Source of the DNA: Candidatus Freyarchaeum deiterrae
GTDB lineage: Archaea > Asgardarchaeota > Jordiarchaeia > Jordiarchaeales > Jordiarchaeaceae
NCBI GenBank assembly: GCA_037305845.1
Contig: CP147778.1
Location: 1,088,001-1,152,000, forward strand
Direction of reading: 5' to 3'
Length of the DNA stretch: 64,000 nt
The position numbers and the translations under genes are program-made. Position 1 is the stretch's first letter; every line of letters begins with the position of its first letter. Below the pieces are notes generated by a model. That model was not told where the DNA came from and ran no database searches. It worked only from the letters and a program-made list of their open reading frames with translations. This document shows, piece by piece, positions 26,536-62,692 of the stretch.

Positions 26536-26631
26536 AGCCAGGTGGTGTAGCGGTCAAGCATAGGGGCCTCTGGAACTCTTATGAGTAGGAGTAAGCCTCG
26601 GACAGCAGTTCGAATCTGCTCCTGGCTACCA
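26536..26631 (+). tRNA. tRNA-Gln(CTG) with a 20-nt intron at 37/38 (26574-26593) and encoded CCA
   Basis: Acceptor stem AGCCAGG/CCTGGCT, anticodon stem GGGGC/GCCTC, T-loop TTCGAAT; the intron forms a BHB-like motif (CTCT/GGAG helix, GG^A and TA^A bulges). Confidence 0.95.
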
Positions 26632-37486: not shown

Positions 37487-37834
37487 ATGGCTAAACAGGC
37501 AAAAAAGAAAAACAAGGAAGAAACTGTACCAGAAGAGAATATGGTTTTTATTGGAAAAAAACCGACAAAGTAGATTCACGTTAGTGTTCTACGTCGAATG
37601 AGTTACGTTCTGGCTTGCGTTATTCAGTTTAATCAGGGTGCGAAAGAAGTAAGAGTTGTGGCGCGTGGAAGGGCGATTTCCAAGGCTGTTGATGTTGCGG
37701 AGATCGTACGCCAGCGTTTCTTGCCTGAGGGTGTAAAATTGGGTAAGATTACTATGGGCACCGAGATTATGGGAGCTAGTGCTGACGAAAAACGTAATGT
37801 TTCCACTATTGATATTCAACTCCTAAAAGCTTAA
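37487..37834 (+). CDS. albA: Alba chromatin/RNA-binding protein, split by an intron: join(37487..37568,37599..37834), 105 aa
   Basis: GGAGGT RBS then ATG at 37487. The spliced product reads ...[17 protein letters not shown]...[15 protein letters not shown]...RNVSTIDI. Confidence 0.9.
37569..37598 (+). other. Putative 30-nt BHB/BHL mRNA intron in alba
   Basis: CGAC/GTCG 4-bp helix, AAA and AAT bulges, inner stem GTAGA/TCTAC, in-frame TAG at 37571-37573. Confidence 0.85.
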
Positions 37835-49983: not shown

Positions 49984-50901
49984 TTACTTTCTCCTAATGA
50001 TTTTTTCAATTTTTATCATGCTATCCAAAGTTTTCAATGGTTCTTTTGCGAGAAGGGCTGGAGCAAGATATCCTGCGGCGTAGAATAAATGGCATAAGAG
50101 GTTTGGTCTCCAAAATGCCAAGTATCCGTATAGAGATGCAAGTAGGAGTCCCACATTAATTATGGTTTTGCTAAGATTTCTACCGTAGAGATAATAATCG
50201 CCCACACTTATCATGTAGGCTCTTTTAAGCATATTTTCAATTTCTATGCGGTCCCTCCAAACTTTATGGAGAACCTCAGCTTTGGGGGCATAAACAACTC
50301 TATGCCCAGAGTCCCGCACTCTATTACTTATACTGATTTCTTCACCAAAAACCTTTACACCATGTGGACCCAGTTGCTCTTTAAACCCTCCAATTTTTAG
50401 TGCTAAATCCTTTCTAATTGCTAGGTTTCCTCCAATTGGAAAGTATATGTCCTTACTCTTTTCTCCCAAATTTGTGATACCCAGGATTCCATAGACATCC
50501 TTTCCAAGCCATCTCGGCTTCTCGACTCCCACCATTAGTAGACTTATTTTCCCTCCAACACATCCAACAACCTCATCTTCAAAAGCACTAATAATTTCTT
50601 TCAACCAGGATTTAGTTGTGATGCAATCATCATCAACAAATGCCACTATGTCACCAGCAGCGATTTTGAGTCCATAATTTCTCGCGGCAGCTATTCCTAT
50701 TCTCTTGGAAGGTCTTACAATTTTAACATTTGAAAAACCCGAAAATTTTGATTTAAGCGCTTCAAAGCTTCCATCTTCGGACCAATTATCAATAACAATA
50801 ATTTCATAATCGCCTTTAAAGTTCTGATGAATTACACTCTCCACACAATCCAATACGTGGTCTTTTCTATTGAAGGTTAGAATAACTACTGATGAAATCA
50901 T
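49984..50901 (-). CDS. GT2 glycosyltransferase
   Basis: IIVIDN.SED, AARNYG and FVDDD. Confidence 0.9.
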   Translation of the reverse strand: MISSVVILTFNRKDHVLDCVESVIHQNFKGDYEIIVIDNWSEDGSFEALKSKFSGFSNVKIVRPSKRIGIAAARNYGLKIAAGDIVAFVDDDCITTKSWLKEIISAFEDEVVGCVGGKISLLMVGVEKPRWLGKDVYGILGITNLGEKSKDIYFPIGGNLAIRKDLALKIGGFKEQLGPHGVKVFGEEISISNRVRDSGHRVVYAPKAEVLHKVWRDRIEIENMLKRAYMISVGDYYLYGRNLSKTIINVGLLLASLYGYLAFWRPNLLCHLFYAAGYLAPALLAKEPLKTLDSMIKIEKIIRRK

Positions 50902-51174
50902 GATAAATTACCCTTCGTACTTAGTATTGCACTCTTTTTTTTATTTTTCGGAAAATATTTATCCATTTTTAGAGTGTACTACCTAAAAGAAGTATTAATA
51001 AGACCTTCCTTAAGAAAGGGAGTAAAAAGTAGCAATCAAGAACATCAAAAAAAATAATTATTAATTGCGGTCAGAATGTTCAGAGGGTAAATTTTGCTAA
51101 TAAAAAGGTTTTAAAATAATTTATAATTAAGTACGAGAGTGAAAATTTCGAAAAGTAGCATGAGGAGATAGTAA

Positions 51175-52095
51175 ATGGTGTTGTCCGTTTCCGTTGTTTT
51201 ATGTGCGTATAATCGTAAGAATGATGTAACGGAGTGTTTGGAGAGTATTCTGAAGCAGAATTATCCCAATTTTGATGTGTGGGTTGTGGATGATGCTTCA
51301 ACTGATGGAACTTATGAATTTTTGAAAAAGAAGTTCGGAGACAATAAAAAGCTTCACATTATTAGAAATGATACGGAAATGGGAAACACCAGTTCTAGGA
51401 ACATGGTTATGCATGAATCTAAGGGAGAAATCCTAGTCTCCACGGACGATGACTGTATAGTACATCAAAACTGGATAGCGAACCTAGTTAAAGAGTTTGA
51501 GAAATCACCGCAAATAGGTCTTGTAACCGGAAAAGTGCTTCCCATATTTTATAAAGAGGTTCCTCAATGGTTGGAGCCTCCGATCTACCCTATACTGGCA
51601 ATAAGAACAGAAAATCAGCGTACTGAAGCGCTGAATCCTTATGGTTGTAACATGGCGGTACTTAGAAGTGTTATGGAGAAAATAAACTATCTGAATGAAG
51701 ATATTACCAGAAAATATGGCGGCTTATATTCTGGAGAGGATACAGATCTAGGATTAAGAGTGAGAGCGGCGGGATATAAGATAATTTACACTCCTGAAGC
51801 TGCGGTTGAACACAAAATGTTTCCAGAACGTTTAACAAAAGAACATTTTATTAGACGAGCTCTATACTTTGGCATGTCCGAACAAGTCTACGCTGGTTCA
51901 AACATGTGGAAATTGCTGGATGGCGCCGCCAATATAATAATATTCCTGTTCAAGTATATTGTGAAAACAAGATTCTCAACTTTAACACTCATAGCCTACA
52001 AAACGGGTTTTATGATCAAAGCACTAGGAGGAGACGAAGTGGCTCTTGAGAGATGGAGAAAATGGTTCATGCGCCTAGCCCAAAAAACTAAGTAA
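51175..52095 (+). CDS. GT2 glycosyltransferase
   Basis: VVDDASTD, STDDD, GCNMA and GEDTD. Confidence 0.9.
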   Translation: MVLSVSVVLCAYNRKNDVTECLESILKQNYPNFDVWVVDDASTDGTYEFLKKKFGDNKKLHIIRNDTEMGNTSSRNMVMHESKGEILVSTDDDCIVHQNWIANLVKEFEKSPQIGLVTGKVLPIFYKEVPQWLEPPIYPILAIRTENQRTEALNPYGCNMAVLRSVMEKINYLNEDITRKYGGLYSGEDTDLGLRVRAAGYKIIYTPEAAVEHKMFPERLTKEHFIRRALYFGMSEQVYAGSNMWKLLDGAANIIIFLFKYIVKTRFSTLTLIAYKTGFMIKALGGDEVALERWRKWFMRLAQKTK

Positions 52096-54357: not shown

Positions 54358-55671
54358 TTAAGTTTTTATCATGGGTTCGGGTAACTTCAATTTTTCAAGA
54401 ATCTTATCCTCAAATATTTGCTTAGCCGTCACTAGGATTGATTTTTCCACTGTGGCTATGTTATGATTGGTGGCAACAATGAGGTTTGCTTTGGTGCATA
54501 TTCCGTTGTCATCTGACCAGTAGTGATGTATAAGTGTTCCACGAGGAGCTTCTAATATGCCTGCACCATTACCCTGTTTAGGCTCCACATCTGCAAGCTT
54601 AACATCGGTACTGACTATATCGGGGTCTTCAAGTAGAATCTTTGCTTTCTCTACAGCTTCAACCAGTTCAACTATCCTAGCCCAGTTATAAGCTAGGGTA
54701 GCATTGCATGGTCTGCCAACAGTATCCCTATATTCCTTGAATGCCTCCTGAGCCAGAGGAGTCTCCATTTTTTCGACAACATTTAGGCGTGGCAAAGGCC
54801 CTGCACGCCAAATTCCGTCTGGATAACCCGCCGGCTTATAGAATATGTGTGTCGCATAGGAGTAAGGTGCTACGTGTTCAGCTATGTATTCCAAATAATC
54901 TTTCTTCGGGAAATCTGCAACAATTTTACCTTCGGGACTCATAACCCTGACCGTTGCCTTCCCAAAGATGGTGTGCACGCCTTCATTGGCAATACCTACG
55001 TGGTATGAATCAAAAACTCCTAGCTTTGTTATAACATCTAGGTAGTCTGTAACAACCTTCTTAGCAAGGTCTACAGTAAAGTTGGTGAGTTCCAGTGCCT
55101 TGTCAATCCTTTTTAACTGTTCATCGCGTTCCTCCTCTGTCAGAGATTTAGACTGACCTCCAGGAACAGAAGTGACTGGATGTATAGCTCTTCCACCTAT
55201 AAGGAAGCAAAGTTCCTGTCCAATTCTCATCAATTCCAGTGCTTTTTTACCCACATCAGGTAGATTTTTAATTACTGTAATCACGTTACGGTATTTCGGC
55301 TCAGCGAGAGGACCTAACAGAAAGTCTGGCGCAGCTAAGGCATAAAAGTGTAAAGCGTGACTGGAAATATATTTTGCCTGTAAGAGGAGTTCTCTAAGCT
55401 TTAACGCGGGCAGGGGTGGAGTAACATCCCAAGCAGTCTCAACAGCGCTTACCGCTGCTAGGTGGTGAGCCTCGGGGCAGATACCGCAAATCCTTGGCGC
55501 TATTCGAATCACCCGGTCGAGATTACGGCCTTCTAGGAATTTTTCAAAGAAACGTGTGACTACTACACCGAAATGGGCGTCTTCTACTGTGTTATTTTTG
55601 CCTAGCTTTATTACGATTTTTCCGTGTCCCTCAAGTCTGGTTGCTGGTTCAATAACAATTTCTTTACTCAT
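54358..55671 (-). CDS. mvhA: Group 3c [NiFe] hydrogenase large subunit lacking the C-terminal motif (VhuA type)
   Basis: TRLEGHG, RICGICPEAH and EAPRGTLIHHY; no terminal DPCxxC. Confidence 0.92.
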   Translation of the reverse strand: MSKEIVIEPATRLEGHGKIVIKLGKNNTVEDAHFGVVVTRFFEKFLEGRNLDRVIRIAPRICGICPEAHHLAAVSAVETAWDVTPPLPALKLRELLLQAKYISSHALHFYALAAPDFLLGPLAEPKYRNVITVIKNLPDVGKKALELMRIGQELCFLIGGRAIHPVTSVPGGQSKSLTEEERDEQLKRIDKALELTNFTVDLAKKVVTDYLDVITKLGVFDSYHVGIANEGVHTIFGKATVRVMSPEGKIVADFPKKDYLEYIAEHVAPYSYATHIFYKPAGYPDGIWRAGPLPRLNVVEKMETPLAQEAFKEYRDTVGRPCNATLAYNWARIVELVEAVEKAKILLEDPDIVSTDVKLADVEPKQGNGAGILEAPRGTLIHHYWSDDNGICTKANLIVATNHNIATVEKSILVTAKQIFEDKILEKLKLPEPMIKT

Positions 55672-55674
55672 ATT

Positions 55675-56586
55675 TTATTTCGCCTTCCTTACGGTTTTTG
55701 ATACTATGCCCGATGGCAGGAAGTAGGTATAAAAGGTTCCGGCAACATCACCGACTCTTTTTACAAGTTCCTCTGGGCTTATTGCCTCATAATCTACTAT
55801 GGAGCCCAGTGCGCTAATCATCTTGGCTCCTTGGTCTATTACATTCGGTCCTGGACCGTAGCATCCCGTACAGGGCGATCCCGCCCTTGTACACAAGGCA
55901 CCGCAGCCTTCACGTGTCGCGGGCCCCATGCAAACGTATCCCTGTTCCAATAAGCACTTCTTTGGATCCGGTATCCCTTCATAGTCTCTCTTTAACTGTT
56001 TAATAGTTATTACTTGGGATTTTTCTCTTGGACACTCGTCACATAGAGTACGAGTTGGTGGTGGCGGTAGCTCGCCTTTCAACAGACCCACTAATGCGTC
56101 TGCAATGTTCTGTGAAGTTACCGGACAACCGGGTAGGAAAACTTCAAAATTCACTATTTTTTTGTTAGGCACAATAAAGTCTAACATCTTTGGAATATCT
56201 TCATCAGGAATAGAAGGTTCTTCAAGACTTTCTGCTTCCATAAATTTACGTTTGAAAGCTTCATCCATAGTAGAAAGATTAAGCAATCCGTAGATTCCAC
56301 CATAGGTGGAACAGCTGCCCAATGAAATCAGAGTTTTAACCTTCGCCCTCAAAGTCTTTAAGATGTGTACATCTTCCTCTGTCCTGCAGACACCTTCAAC
56401 AATTCCGACATCGATTGAGCCGTCCTTGTAACTCTCTAAATCCTTGTACTTGAAGTCGGTCACTACATGCCAGAAGACAATGTCCAACTCCGGCAGAATG
56501 GGTAGCAGGCCTTCGTAATTATCTAAAAACGATTGGTAACAACCCCAACAACTGGCCAACGAAACCATAGCTACTTTAACAGGCAT
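55675..56586 (-). CDS. mvhG: F420-non-reducing hydrogenase small subunit
   Basis: SCWGC, GSCSTYGG, LPGCP, CLLEQGYVCMGPAT and PCTGCYGP. Confidence 0.92.
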   Translation of the reverse strand: MPVKVAMVSLASCWGCYQSFLDNYEGLLPILPELDIVFWHVVTDFKYKDLESYKDGSIDVGIVEGVCRTEEDVHILKTLRAKVKTLISLGSCSTYGGIYGLLNLSTMDEAFKRKFMEAESLEEPSIPDEDIPKMLDFIVPNKKIVNFEVFLPGCPVTSQNIADALVGLLKGELPPPPTRTLCDECPREKSQVITIKQLKRDYEGIPDPKKCLLEQGYVCMGPATREGCGALCTRAGSPCTGCYGPGPNVIDQGAKMISALGSIVDYEAISPEELVKRVGDVAGTFYTYFLPSGIVSKTVRKAK

Positions 56587-56605: not shown

Positions 56606-57065
56606 TTACTCCTTATCTTTTCTGAGCGGACTAGGTCCCAACTCCTTCAGTTTTTTCACAAAATCGTTCATAACTTCAACTAAAACATTACCTTCACTGG
56701 CTGAAATCCACTCCAACCTTAATCTCTCGGGTTCAATACCGAGCTGTTCAATTAACTTTTCGAGAAGTCTAATTCTCTCCTCAGCCCTGTAGTTTCCAGT
56801 AACATAGTGACAGTCACCGTGATGACACCCCGCTATAAGCACACCATCAGCACCCAATTCAAAAGCTTTCAAAACAAACTGAGGATCGACACGACTACTA
56901 CACATAACCCGAATAAACCTAGCATTTGAGGGATACTGCATCCTACTAGTACCCGCCATATCAGCGCCGGCATATGAACACCAATTCTGCGCCATGTAGA
57001 CAAATCTACGAAGCTTTGCAGAAGATGCCGACAATTCTTGGTTTAAATTCTCCGTCATTACCCAT
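56606..57065 (-). CDS. mvhD: MvhD [2Fe-2S] subunit, split by an intron: complement(join(56606..56984,57016..57065)), 142 aa
   Basis: The spliced product reads [28 protein letters not shown]...RVMCSSRV...GCHHGDCHY; GGTGA RBS upstream of 57065. Confidence 0.9.
56985..57015 (-). other. Putative 31-nt BHB/BHL mRNA intron in mvhD
   Basis: CTGC/GCAG 4-bp helix, AAA and AAT bulges, inner GCT/GGC and GTAGA/TCTAC stems, in-frame TAG and a frameshift. Confidence 0.87.
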
Positions 57066-57156
57066 TGCCTTTCACCTTACTTTAGTAATGTTTTTTTGAA
57101 GTTGTAGCAGATATTTTGTTGTGTTCACATTTTTTATTATCATTAGGGGGGAAGGT

Positions 57157-57225
57157 TTCCCCACGCGTGTTTTTAATAGGGTTTTTTTCGTGGTTAACAG
57201 TTATTTTTGATATTTAATGCTTTCG
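57157..57225 (-). promoter_or_regulatory. Promoter/leader of the mvhDGAU operon, duplicated upstream of hdrA
   Basis: BRE/TATA-like CGAAAGCATTAAATA followed by a CCACG...CGTGG inverted repeat; near-identical to 60864-60931. Confidence 0.75.
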
Positions 57226-57695: not shown

Positions 57696-58724
57696 GTGAC
57701 AACTTTGAAAGTGCTGTTTAAAACTGTACAGGGGCTTGAAGAACCCACTTCGCAGGAGATTCTTGAGAAACTGAGCGCTATTAATTTGATCTTCTCCCCC
57801 TATGGCCCACAAGGATGGATTAAGTGTGAAATAGAGGATCGCATATTTAGGGATGTAGGAAGACTAAGGTCAATTATTGAGGCTTATGTGATTTTACGGG
57901 AGGAAGATTACGACGAGGGGTTCTCAATTGATAATTTTGCGGATGCGGTGGTAACTGAGATTCCTGTTTATGCTCCTAACGCCCGAAAAATTTCAGTTTC
58001 AGCCTACTCAAGTCACAGAAAACCAAGCCAAAAGGAGATACAAGGAACTTTTGCGAGGAGAATCGCCAAGGAACTTAACGCTGAATGCAATCTTAGGAAT
58101 TATGATACCGCTTTAAGAATAACCTTACTCAGGAGAATAGCGCTTGCAACCATAAACCTGGAAATACAGCCAGGAAACATGCCAAAGAAACTTGAAACCC
58201 ACCCAACACCAGTACTTCCCCCCATAGCGTATTGTATGGTCAGGTTAGCGTCCCCACAGAAGGGTGAACACTTGCTCGACCCGATGTGTGGTTGTGGAAC
58301 AATACCATGCATGGCGGCATTAGAGTGGGAAAACCTTAGAGTTACAGGGTCGGACATTTCCAGTGAATATATATCCTGCGCCAAGAGAAACGCTGAAACC
58401 TTAGGGGTAGCGGATAGAGTAAAATTTATGGTTAGTGACGTAGCAGAACTCGCAGAAAAAGGAGTTGAAGCGGATATAATCTCAGTTAACCCACCGTATG
58501 GAATAGCCATACCAACACAAAACGAGACGGAAAAACTGTACGACTCGATATTCAACACAGCTGATAAAATTCTACCAAAACAGGGTAGAATCATCATAAT
58601 AACACCCTACCCTCAACAAGTAGGAGAAGCGGCAAACAAAAAGAAGTTCCAGAGTATCAACACCTACAAAATCCACGAAGGAGAATTACCCAGAACAATC
58701 CAAATCATGAAAAAGTTACAATAA
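57696..58724 (+). CDS. THUMP-domain RNA methyltransferase (Trm14/TrmN-like)
   Basis: GLE, LLDPMCGCGTI, GSDIS and NPPYG. Confidence 0.85.
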   Translation: MTTLKVLFKTVQGLEEPTSQEILEKLSAINLIFSPYGPQGWIKCEIEDRIFRDVGRLRSIIEAYVILREEDYDEGFSIDNFADAVVTEIPVYAPNARKISVSAYSSHRKPSQKEIQGTFARRIAKELNAECNLRNYDTALRITLLRRIALATINLEIQPGNMPKKLETHPTPVLPPIAYCMVRLASPQKGEHLLDPMCGCGTIPCMAALEWENLRVTGSDISSEYISCAKRNAETLGVADRVKFMVSDVAELAEKGVEADIISVNPPYGIAIPTQNETEKLYDSIFNTADKILPKQGRIIIITPYPQQVGEAANKKKFQSINTYKIHEGELPRTIQIMKKLQ

Positions 58725-58842: not shown

Positions 58843-60801
58843 CTACTTTTGCAGGGCGGCTTCTATTTCAGCCATCACTTGTTTGAACTTGAAGTGTTGC
58901 TCGTCTATAGCTCCACTTGGGCAAGCAGCGGCACAAGCTCCACAGCCTTTGCACAGTATGCTGTTTATATTTGATTTATTATCTACAGTCATGCCGATTG
59001 CTCCGTATGGACATACATCTTGGCATACCTTGCATCCAGAGCAGAGTTCCTCGTCGACGACGCTAAAGTAGGGCTCGATCTCCACTTCACCCATACCCAT
59101 GAGTGCCATGGCGGCTGCAGCTGCACCCTTGCCTTGAGCTACTGCGTCAGGGATATCTTTTGGTCCTTGAGCCATGCCGCATACGAAGACACCGTCTGTA
59201 AGGGTGTCAACTGGGCGTAGCTTGGGGTGTGCTTCCATCAAGAATCCGTCTGCACTCTTGGAGAGTCGGAATAAGTGCTGTATTTCGGTAGTTTCCTTTC
59301 TGGGAATCACCGCTGATGCTAGGACAACCAGGTCCACTTCTAGTTCCATGAGTTGGCCGAGTAGCGTATCTTCCGCGCGGACTAATAGTTTTTCTGTTCC
59401 GGGGACTTGTCGGACTTCTGCCACTCTGCCTCGAACAAAGTTTACGCCGTATTCTCTTCCCGCAATCTCGTAGAATTCATCGTAACCTTTTCCAAAGGTC
59501 CGCATATCCATGTAAAATATGAAAACCTCAGCGTCAGGATATTTTTCCTTAATCTGCCTCGCGTGCTTTACGCTATAAGTGCAGCAGACTCTGGAACAGT
59601 ACTGGAATATCCTCTGGTCACGCGAACCTACACACTGAATGAACGCTATTCGCTTCGGCTTCTCATGGGTTGATGGAACAATAACCTTGCCACCCGTTGG
59701 GCCGAACGAACTAAGCAGCCTCTCCAGCTCCATGGAGGTGATTACGTTTGGTAAACGGCCATAACCATACTGGGGCAAGTCAAACGGAGTATATACATCA
59801 TAGCCAGTAGCTATTATAACAGTGCCCACGTTCAACTCTATCTCTTTCTCTTGCTGGTTGAAGTCAAGAGCCTCAGGCTCACAGGCCTTCACACACAGCA
59901 TACACTCTATACACTTATTTCTATCAATGGTGTAAAGGTTAGGAACAGCCTGCGGGAAAGGAATGTACGCCGCTCTTCGCGCACCCATACCTAATTCAAA
60001 TTCGTTGGGAACATACACTGGGCAGACCTCAACACATTTTCCACAACCAGTGCATTTTCCAGCTATCACGTATCTCGGATGTTCAACTATCTTCACTTTG
60101 AAGTTGCCTACATATCCTTCAACGCTTTTGAGTTCGCTATAGGTATGGATTTCAATATTCGGGTTACGAGACGCTTCCACCATTTTCGGAGTCAAAATAC
60201 ATGCGCTGCAGTCCATAGTTGGAAACGTCTTGTCAAGCTGCGCCATTCTCCCTCCAATAGTGGGAGACATCTCAATAAGGTAAACCTTGAATCCCGCCTT
60301 AGCAATGTCCAGCGCAGCTGAAATTCCAGCGATACCGCCTCCAACTATTAGGCACTCTGGTGTAACCTTTACTTTCTGAACCTCCAGTGGTTCCAATGCC
60401 GTAGCTTTAGCAACAGCAATCCTAATCAGATCCTTTGCCTTTTCCAACGCTTCCTCCGGTTGCCTCATGTGAACCCAGGTATCATGCTCCCTAATATTCG
60501 CCTGCTCAAAAAGAAACTGGTTCAACCCGGCCTCCACACACACTCTCCGGAAGGTCGGCTCATGAAGCCTCGGACTACAAGCTGCAACCACTACCCTGTT
60601 AAGATTCAGCTTCTGAATGTCCTCCTTAATCATCCCCTGTCCAGGATCAGAACACATAAAACGGTAATCTTTGGCCACCACCACATTGGGCAGGGTTTGT
60701 GCATACTCAGTCAAAGCCGTAGGACTCACTACACCAGCTATGTTCGTACCACAATGACACACATAAACTCCTATCCGTACTTCTTCTTCTTTTTCACCCA
60801 T
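58843..60801 (-). CDS. hdrA: Heterodisulfide reductase subunit A
   Basis: GVYVCHCGTNI, AACSP, GGGIAG, LDKTFPTMDCSACI, CVGSRD and CSRVCC, plus ferredoxin motifs. Confidence 0.95.
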   Translation of the reverse strand: MGEKEEEVRIGVYVCHCGTNIAGVVSPTALTEYAQTLPNVVVAKDYRFMCSDPGQGMIKEDIQKLNLNRVVVAACSPRLHEPTFRRVCVEAGLNQFLFEQANIREHDTWVHMRQPEEALEKAKDLIRIAVAKATALEPLEVQKVKVTPECLIVGGGIAGISAALDIAKAGFKVYLIEMSPTIGGRMAQLDKTFPTMDCSACILTPKMVEASRNPNIEIHTYSELKSVEGYVGNFKVKIVEHPRYVIAGKCTGCGKCVEVCPVYVPNEFELGMGARRAAYIPFPQAVPNLYTIDRNKCIECMLCVKACEPEALDFNQQEKEIELNVGTVIIATGYDVYTPFDLPQYGYGRLPNVITSMELERLLSSFGPTGGKVIVPSTHEKPKRIAFIQCVGSRDQRIFQYCSRVCCTYSVKHARQIKEKYPDAEVFIFYMDMRTFGKGYDEFYEIAGREYGVNFVRGRVAEVRQVPGTEKLLVRAEDTLLGQLMELEVDLVVLASAVIPRKETTEIQHLFRLSKSADGFLMEAHPKLRPVDTLTDGVFVCGMAQGPKDIPDAVAQGKGAAAAAMALMGMGEVEIEPYFSVVDEELCSGCKVCQDVCPYGAIGMTVDNKSNINSILCKGCGACAAACPSGAIDEQHFKFKQVMAEIEAALQK

Positions 60802-60863
60802 TCGGATTTCCTCCGAGATTTAATTTTTAAAGAGCTATATTAAATTAAATTATCGTTAAGAAT

Positions 60864-60931
60864 TTTCCCACGCGTATTTTTAGGAGGGTTGTTTCGTGGT
60901 TAACAGTTATTTTTGATATTTAATGTTTTCG
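60864..60931 (-). promoter_or_regulatory. hdrA promoter/leader, second copy of the shared element
   Basis: Shares TTTCGTGGTTAACAGTTATTTTTGATATTTAATG with the mvhD upstream copy. Confidence 0.75.
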
Positions 60932-61082: not shown

Positions 61083-61694
61083 ATGGCGACTCTAAGGATA
61101 ATCTGCGATAACTGCGGGGCCAAGTTGCAATATTCCGAAGGTGAAACAGTTGTAACCTGCCCTTATTGTAATTGTGCCGTGGCACTAATAAAACCAGAAG
61201 ACGCCGAAGAACACTTCAAACGGGGGAACGACCATTATGAAAAGGGATTGCTTGGTAAGGCGATACGGGAATACAGAGAGGCGCTAAGAATAAACCCAGA
61301 CCATGCCAAAGCCCACAACAACCTGGGGACCGCTCTTGATGATAAGGGATTGGTTGATGAGGCGGTACGGGAATATGGAGAGGCGCTAAGAATAAACCCA
61401 GAATATGCCATAGCCCACTATAACTTGGGAAACGCCCTTTATGATAAGGGGTTGCTTGACGAGGCGATCCGAGAATATAGAGAAGCAATAAGAATAAAAC
61501 CGGACATCGTCTATGCACATAACAACTTGGGAAATGCTCTTGATGATAAGGGATTAGTTGATGAGGCGATACAAGAATATAGAGAAGCAATAAGAATAAA
61601 ACCGGACTTCACCGAAGCTCAACTCAACCTGAGTACGACCCTTAAAGCTAAGGGGCGGCCTGAGAGGCGATCAAAAAGTACAAAGAGGCGTTAA
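61083..61694 (+). CDS. Zinc-ribbon plus TPR protein, copy 1 (last repeat frameshifted)
   Basis: CDNCG...CPYC and 34-aa repeats of the form AHNNLG.AL..KG..DEAI.EY.EAIRIKP. Confidence 0.88.
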   Translation: MATLRIICDNCGAKLQYSEGETVVTCPYCNCAVALIKPEDAEEHFKRGNDHYEKGLLGKAIREYREALRINPDHAKAHNNLGTALDDKGLVDEAVREYGEALRINPEYAIAHYNLGNALYDKGLLDEAIREYREAIRIKPDIVYAHNNLGNALDDKGLVDEAIQEYREAIRIKPDFTEAQLNLSTTLKAKGRPERRSKSTKRR

Positions 61695-61843
61695 GAATAA
61701 AACCAGACCCTGCCGAAGATTCCTGAGTATGCATGTATTCAGACTGCGATGAAATCTTTTTGTACGTTAAGCGGCAGAATTATATCTCCTCAAATTAATT
61801 TAGTTAATACTTGATTTATGATGGAACTTAGGGGTATTTTTAA

Positions 61844-62692
61844 ATGGCGACTCTAAGGATAACCTGCGACAACTGCGGAGCCCCACTGCAATACTCCAAA
61901 GGAGAAACAGTCCAAACCTGCCCTTATTGTAAGTGCACAGTAACACTAATAATAAAAACAGCAGCAGCAGCAGAAGAAGAGGAAGAAGCCGAAGAAATAT
62001 CAGAAGAGGAAATGGAAGAAGCCGAAGACCATTACAAACAGGGGGTTGCCCTTTATTACAAAAGGTTGAATGATGAAGCGATTGAAGAATTCGAAGAAGC
62101 GCTAAAAATAAAACCAAACTACGCCGAAGCCCACAACGACCTAGGAGTTGCCCTCTTAGATAAGGGGCTGATTGGTGAAGCAATCAAGAAGTACAGAAAG
62201 GCGCTAAAAATAAAACCAAACCTCGCCACAGCCCACTATAATTTGGGGAATGCCCTTAGAGATAAGGGATTGCTGGATGAAGCGATCCAGGAATACAGAG
62301 AAGCAATAAGAATAAAACCAGACGACACCGACACCCACCATAATTTGGGGAATGTCCTTAAAGCAAAGAGATTATTTGATGAGGCGATACGAGAATACAG
62401 AAAAGCAATAAGAATAAAACCAGACGACCCCGACACCCACAACAACATGGGGAACGCCCTCTACGATAAAGGGCTGCTTGACGAAGCAATCAAGGAATAC
62501 AGAAAAGCGCTAAAAATAAAACCGAGCTACGTTGAAGCCCATTATAACCTGGGGAACGCCTACTATGATAAGGGGCTGCTTGACGAATCGACACGAGAAT
62601 ACAGAAAAGCGCTAAAAATAAACCCAGACCTTATTGAAGGCATTCCTAAGGATCGCCGTAAGAAGATCCTTAAGGGTAAATGGTCATTTTAG
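61844..62692 (+). CDS. Zinc-ribbon plus TPR protein, copy 2
   Basis: Same N-terminus as copy 1, an acidic linker and about six TPRs. Confidence 0.9.
   Translation: MATLRITCDNCGAPLQYSKGETVQTCPYCKCTVTLIIKTAAAAEEEEEAEEISEEEMEEAEDHYKQGVALYYKRLNDEAIEEFEEALKIKPNYAEAHNDLGVALLDKGLIGEAIKKYRKALKIKPNLATAHYNLGNALRDKGLLDEAIQEYREAIRIKPDDTDTHHNLGNVLKAKRLFDEAIREYRKAIRIKPDDPDTHNNMGNALYDKGLLDEAIKEYRKALKIKPSYVEAHYNLGNAYYDKGLLDESTREYRKALKINPDLIEGIPKDRRKKILKGKWSF

Follow-up and report, generated by a model that had tools for sequence, protein, structure and literature searches.

The window analysed here, a stretch of 64,000 nucleotides from contig CP147778.1 of the Asgard archaeon Candidatus Freyarchaeum deiterrae, carries an mvhD gene adjoining mvhG and mvhA, as expected of an MvhD/FlpD gene. 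The features at this locus, in window positions, are as follows.

54358–55671, minus strand: mvhA, intact
55675–56586, minus strand: mvhG, intact
57065–56606, minus strand: mvhD, with its ATG at 57065 and its stop ending at 56606
57072–57078, minus strand: Shine-Dalgarno-like AAGGTGA 5′ of the exon-1 ATG, present in 8/8 insert-bearing lineages
57016–57065, minus strand: mvhD exon 1, 50 nt, comprising 16 codons to Cys16 plus AA of Asn17
56985–57015, minus strand: predicted 31-nt BHB-type intron of mvhD, lacking in nine close orthologs, present in eight lineages and gone in contig L145
56606–56984, minus strand: mvhD exon 2, 379 nt, FlpD domain, with a dN/dS of 0–0.04 among insert-bearing lineages
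56606–57058, minus strand: competing 150-aa ORF, a gene-finder call with a false N-terminus and no Cys16
57696–58724, plus strand: Trm14-like THUMP methyltransferase gene between hdrA and mvhD, found in insert-bearing lineages only
58843–60801, minus strand: hdrA, intact, 1.8 kb from mvhD

The ATG-to-stop span of mvhD is 460 nt, which is no multiple of 3. Its first frame runs through 16 codons and then into K-A-S-stop, and NWCSYAGAD sits in another frame, exactly as a sequence-only reading of the locus had described. When removals of 1–79 nt were tried, only those of 31 nt restored IFCxxCSY; three 31-nt registers (57017–56987, 57016–56986, and 57015–56985) give the canonical CNWC, and among these the BHB rule selects 57015–56985 as the intron boundary. 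Excision of this segment generates UGC AAU UGG and thereby the FCNWCSY that the earlier reading had predicted, in an MvhD of 142 aa that matches its orthologs and chain D of PDB 5ODC. The five conserved cysteines that characterize MvhD/FlpD (PF02662), including the N-terminal CxxC, are found in the spliced product only. Cys16 is conserved in 118/118 aligned MvhD homologs, and the weight given to this residue here derives from that conservation; in the literature searched, no paper was found on which cysteines bind the MvhD cluster. The insert itself is short, has no ORF and is too small for a ribozyme, and since three independent Logan assemblies hold the identical insert, it is no assembly error. 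The genome encodes five further FlpD/MvhD domains. As a side observation, two MvhD/VhuD-like domains, L033 (G000:6036-6404) and L034 (G000:1249558-1249926), carry an in-frame TGA at CxxU (CWK-TGA-GY) and are probably selenocysteine forms, and a decayed copy of such a TGA-bearing domain lies at 2753021.

The mvhD genes of nine close relatives, namely four same-genus orthologs (exon 2 90–93% identical) and five from the sister family, read straight through CNWC, and the 31 nt are therefore an insertion. Seven further insert-bearing lineages were reached through cluster members of the mis-called mvhD protein, and across the resulting eight lineages, which are 80–86% identical in nucleotides where measured, the insert is always exactly 31 nt long, with the same helix and bulges and an invariant in-frame UAG. 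Changes in the insert are confined to the first intron base, the mismatches, the loop, and swaps between G-U and Watson–Crick pairs; 98.7% of structure cells are paired, compared with 24–51% for slid partners. Pair changes among the eight lineages are one-sided only; none is two-sided, and covariation proper is absent. No insert was found at this site in 59 readable metagenome mvhD loci (21 others were unparsed) or in the five same-genus GTDB genomes, none of 9 matches in GTDB at large was an mvhD, and no sequence likeness to a source copy was found elsewhere in the genome. A phylogenetic tree neither supported nor refuted a single clade of insert-bearing lineages, and one origin appeared in 16% of bootstrap trees.

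Both exons are under selection in the frames that splicing would join. Pairwise comparisons of exon 2 gave up to 46 synonymous versus 0–5 non-synonymous differences, and no pair exceeds a dN/dS of 0.04. Conservation extends to exon 1 in its own frame (for example, 5 synonymous and 0 non-synonymous changes between L144 and L146). In codons 12–19, the exon side of the structure, 7/7 synonymous sites are invariant, compared with 34/105 in the rest of exon 2; the contrast gives a p of about 6e-4, which is approximate as the lineages are related. A pseudogene reading, in which a small palindromic insertion disrupts mvhD and always stays in place, is thus very improbable. Other MvhD-like domains could substitute for the product, and hdrA has been split from the operon in this clade, but the low dN/dS is maintained at large synonymous distance, further lesions are absent in all eight lineages, the ribosome-binding site is retained, and an exactly excised form exists in contig L145. 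The earlier argument against simple pseudogenisation is upheld by this dN/dS and by the fixed length and motif of the insert.

The same comparison bears on translation of the unspliced RNA, whether it yields the 150-aa ORF or starts at an ATG within the insert (129–137 aa), as publicly annotated. The exon-2 frame is indeed open across the insert in 8/8 lineages, each with an ATG in or near the insert. The product, however, would lack Cys16 and the first conserved strand; the ATG of the 150-aa ORF occurs in only 2/8 lineages and a stop blocks the long form in 2, start sites vary between lineages, insert-encoded residues change freely, and it is in the other frame that exon 1 shows conservation. 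We consider this reading highly unlikely, and the prospect that the 150-aa ORF is the real product, which the sequence-only reading had itself raised as an objection, fails on the missing cysteine, the rare ATG and the stop.

The fold of the insert and its flanks was resolved into the following elements.

57018–57021, minus strand: central helix, exon strand CUGC, invariant and paired in 8/8 lineages
56987–56990, minus strand: central helix, intron strand GCAG, invariant
57015–57017, minus strand: 5′ bulge AA|A with a predicted cut between 57016 and 57015; bases 1–2 invariant, the third A or U
56984–56986, minus strand: 3′ bulge AA|U with a predicted cut between 56985 and 56984, invariant
56991–57014, minus strand: intron hairpin (h′) with the in-frame UAG at 57008–57006; 97% of cells paired, UAG invariant
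56977–57029, minus strand: outer exon–exon helix GGCAUC (57029–57024) / GGUGUU (56982–56977), parted from the BHB by an internal loop

A 4-bp central helix (CUGC/GCAG, four Watson–Crick pairs) between two 3-nt bulges at the exon–intron boundaries is present in relaxed form, followed inwards by an inner stem of GCU/GGC and then GUAGA/UCUAC. The 57-nt stretch around the insert has a folding z of −3.25. The probability of such geometry arising by chance in a 31-nt segment of a coding gene was 7.5e-4, counting a central helix of four Watson–Crick pairs and at least 3 inner pairs in any of the three registers. The fold proposed in the sequence-only reading thus stood for the central helix, the bulges AAA and AAU, the inner stem and the outer pairing, but its outer helix does not stack on the 3′ bulge. 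A U-U mismatch and a small internal loop follow that bulge before the outer exon helix, which removes the strict hBHBh′ motif from consideration, and since the outer helix is not stacked directly, the motif is of the relaxed HBh′/BHL type. The same cut rule, applied to the intron-bearing tRNA-Gln of the window, yields a normal tRNA-Gln. This tRNA-Gln(CTG) gene (window 26536–26631, plus strand) has a 20-nt intron at 37/38 and is wrongly assigned to Lys by ARAGORN when introns are allowed.

The genome encodes an enzyme set of the kind such a motif would require, with two EndA genes, for a two-subunit splicing endonuclease, and RtcB. The alignment was read at the positions we take to be the catalytic Tyr, His, and Lys of EndA, and one subunit retains all three. 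This catalytic subunit most resembles EndA of Aeropyrum pernix, with which it shares the Crenarchaea-type loop and the lysine in that loop; the second subunit has no such His, which by sequence fits a structural subunit. The gene content thus includes the hetero-oligomeric EndA and RNA ligase expected of hosts of cbf5-kind introns. It is the Crenarchaea-type loop that lets EndA cut relaxed motifs at non-standard sites (PMC3241643). In the complete Freyarchaeia genome of Valentin-Alvarado et al. (2024), from an Asgard archaeon of wetland soil, 92–95% of tRNA genes carry introns (PMC11291895).

The surroundings of mvhD differ between lineages with and without the insert. The earlier statement that the rest of the operon is intact was correct for the genes themselves, mvhG, mvhA and hdrA, but hdrA lies outside the operon, with the opposite-strand methyltransferase gene in between; in the four same-genus insert-free genomes, only a few bases separate the end of hdrA from mvhD. 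A 70-nt non-coding element occurs on the minus strand both 5′ of mvhD (57156–57225) and 5′ of hdrA (60863–60931), the two copies being 90% alike. The copy before mvhD is 87–94% conserved in all insert-bearing lineages, and intronless relatives have only the first 30 nt of the element before hdrA. It is probably a duplicated promoter or operator that arrived with the split of hdrA from mvhDGA. Elsewhere in the window, two tandem paralogous zinc-ribbon plus TPR-repeat genes lie upstream of hdrA (61083–62692, plus strand), and glycosyltransferase genes occupy 49984–52095.

An excised form of the sequence was found in public sequencing runs. The protein P0134 reads through IFCNWCSY, and its contig, L145 (Logan, SRR28530379, two samples), shows 0 mismatches over 6,774 nt to L146 and L147 (SRR28530383 and SRR28530382), with only the 31 nt missing. 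A second locus was examined in order to tell RNA from a DNA allele.

37569–37598, plus strand: 30-nt BHB intron with an in-frame UAG in alba (gene 37487–37834), the independent test locus

The alba intron is common to the same-genus genomes G003, G004, and G005. The gene is uninterrupted in SRR28530378 and SRR28530379 and contains the insert in SRR28530383, and the contigs with and without the 30 nt have 0 other mismatches over 8,041 nt. Two unlinked introns missing in one run, with the sequence otherwise identical, form the pattern expected of cDNA, and we infer that L145 derives from RNA, the library type being putative. The intronless mvhD form belongs to a relative at about 80% nucleotide identity and not to the present strain, and no paper naming SRR28530378 or SRR28530379 was found in the literature searched. 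Apart from these contigs, in the Alba proteins P0149, P0177, and P0178 (118 aa), the intron stop is a sense codon and 10 intron codons are read in frame; these forms may be real variants or read errors.

Two further explanations of the intronless sequence, which together have a very small probability, were weighed against splicing: that ribosomes hop over the insert, or that the intronless contigs represent a DNA allele that has undergone precise loss of the insert. For a DNA allele, the contigs are long (7–13 kb) and span both strands and intergenic DNA, which suits DNA as well as RNA, and an RNA origin needs deep coverage or DNA carry-over. Such an allele, however, would need the loss of two unlinked introns with nothing else changed in 14.8 kb, and precise loss itself requires a spliced RNA template. 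As for translational bypassing, AAU stands at both ends in 7/8 lineages, as a take-off/landing match, with a hairpin and the UAG in between; but the present genome has AAA versus AAU, with two sense codons between take-off and UAG, so that the features of T4 gene 60 and byps bypassing are not found here, and bypassing would leave the nucleic acid itself unchanged, whereas L145 shows the deletion.

Introns like that of mvhD were also found in hdrC, porA, and alba. Besides scans for the motif, a motif-free spliced alignment was performed, in which proteins sampled from related genomes were compared with this genome at about 477 loci; it is blind to introns shared with the comparator, such as that of alba. 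The loci outside the window are listed below.

L154:2345-2383 (G000:1152345-1152383), plus strand: BHB intron of hdrC, 39 nt with a stop, just outside the window
G000:1589381, minus strand: 28-nt frame-breaking insert in porA with BHB, from the motif-free search
G000:1500558, minus strand: 20-nt frame-breaking insert with BHB in an unnamed Cys-rich protein, from the motif-free search
G000:1055908, plus strand: 73-nt frame-breaking insert with a long stem and 3/4 helix pairs, from the motif-free search

In this comparison, BHB geometry was present in 3/3 cleanly aligned frame-breaking inserts (mvhD, hdrC, and one unnamed gene), where 0.014 were expected, and in 0/3 in-frame inserts. Relaxed filters gave 4/11 with BHB against 0.13 expected, with porA added. 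The hdrC site in G004 carries a 30-nt intron of different inner sequence and the same helix and bulges, and the intron is missing from G001, G005, and L144. The element GTAGAT...TCTAC is common to the mvhD and alba introns and occurs 21 times genome-wide, so that the link it makes between them is only suggestive. The genome-wide motif scans were less clear. The first, with one coding model, showed no excess and missed mvhD itself; the second, with two coding models, recovered mvhD and overall showed no excess over six decoy geometries, and its 10 hits of 26–33 nt with a stable hairpin, versus 0–3 in decoys, belong to a size window chosen afterwards. Ab initio scanning yields gatE, porA, pcm, and endoQ as candidates and is too noisy for counting; further 27–32-nt BHB candidates lie at G000:1472189, 1702054, 1876927, 2244134, 2285374, and 2983351, and most of these fall in the 1.1–2.3 Mb part, where the ARAGORN-found tRNA genes also lie. 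A scan candidate at window 6828 was rejected, being antisense to a real gene. As a rough lower estimate, mRNA introns may occur in some tens of genes, or about 1% of the total.

Collectively, we assign a probability of about 0.92 to the 31 nt of mvhD being a genuine pre-mRNA intron, of the type known from archaeal tRNAs, with predicted removal by EndA/RtcB, and this microbe very probably splices messenger RNAs. The central claim of the sequence-only reading, a BHB-type intron within the CxxC motif, is borne out by geometry, conservation, selection, the enzyme genes, and the exactly excised contig. In the proposed mechanism, exon CUGC and intron GCAG of the folded transcript would form a helix flanked by the two 3-base bulges, a heterotetrameric EndA would cut each bulge behind its second base, and RtcB would ligate the exons to UGC AAU UGG, giving the MvhD with its first cysteine; on unspliced RNA, translation would end after 19 codons at the intron UAG. 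EndA and RtcB are thus the presumed agents of a reaction that we infer to be constitutive in mvhD. The intron, which would share the genome with at least a few other mRNA introns of its kind, would have been gained within the genus and tolerated because a broad-specificity EndA, already serving >90% of tRNAs, could remove it routinely.

The sequence-only reading had gone further and proposed that splicing gates the link between HdrA and MvhD. This holds trivially, as MvhD needs splicing, but regulated splicing that switches the electron-bifurcating Mvh-Hdr complex on and off, in the manner of IRE1/XBP1, is less likely than routine splicing and on balance improbable. Two genes of one complex, mvhD and hdrC, have introns inside cysteine motifs, the insert and its UAG are conserved over eight lineages, and expression of the complex in situ is high (PMC11291895). 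Against this, similar introns occur in unrelated genes (alba, porA, gatE, and pcm), the mvhD and hdrC introns are patchy among close relatives, and five other FlpD domains exist, and for these three reasons routine splicing is favoured; moreover, any splicing requires conservation of the motif without implying control, and the excised path was the assembled one in the likely RNA runs. It is accordingly doubtful that the two introns jointly set the output of Mvh-Hdr through a regulated EndA/RtcB layer in Freyarchaeia.

The IRE1/RtcB splicing of XBP1 and HAC1 in eukaryotes is a regulated switch in which splicing is protein-catalysed and frame-correcting and a tRNA ligase joins the exons. The mvhD insert is likewise short and frame-correcting, but nuclease and motif differ and the likeness is an analogy only; this eukaryotic splicing is named in PMC13149111. 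The closest precedent is the intron in cbf5 pre-mRNA of Desulfurococcales and Sulfolobales (Watanabe, 2002; Yoshinari, 2006; Yokobori, 2009, PMC2738675), which is also a short BHB intron in protein-coding sequence in hosts of hetero-oligomeric EndA, with gain and loss across lineages. Where cbf5 stands alone, the genome studied here has such introns in mvhD, alba, hdrC, and porA at the least, and gains within a single genus are recent; moreover, mvhD encodes an Fe-S subunit of energy metabolism in the Asgard phylum. The BHB intron of Haloferax volcanii HVO_1309 is likewise in an mRNA cut by EndA (PMC7714728) but lies in the 5′ UTR, whereas removal of the mvhD intron is needed for the reading frame. 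Non-canonical tRNA introns are described in Freyarchaeia and Atabeyarchaeia (PMC11291895; bioRxiv 10.64898/2026.10.13.758758); those of Freyarchaeia share organism, motif, cut rule, and repeated independent gains with mvhD, and both papers treat tRNA genes only, with no mention of mRNA introns. A 2020 paper (PMC7714728) still gave cbf5 as the sole gene for splicing within archaeal coding sequence, and the literature searched held no archaeal mRNA intron beyond cbf5 and the one 5′ UTR case, and nothing newer than 2020. The mechanism is therefore already known from cbf5; what is new is its extension to a set of several genes, with recent gains, in an Asgard archaeon.

This would mean that an Asgard archaeon needs splicing of coding sequence for a core energy enzyme and several other genes, and that the proliferation of introns seen in the tRNAs of this lineage has extended to its mRNAs. 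Public annotations of these genomes would accordingly carry truncated or false N-termini (129–150 aa for mvhD). Were regulation to prove true, the locus would be the prokaryotic equivalent of IRE1/XBP1-type control, in the group most closely related to eukaryotes; as routine splicing, it offers a tractable case of recent intron gain, by a non-spliceosomal route, in the sister group of eukaryotes.
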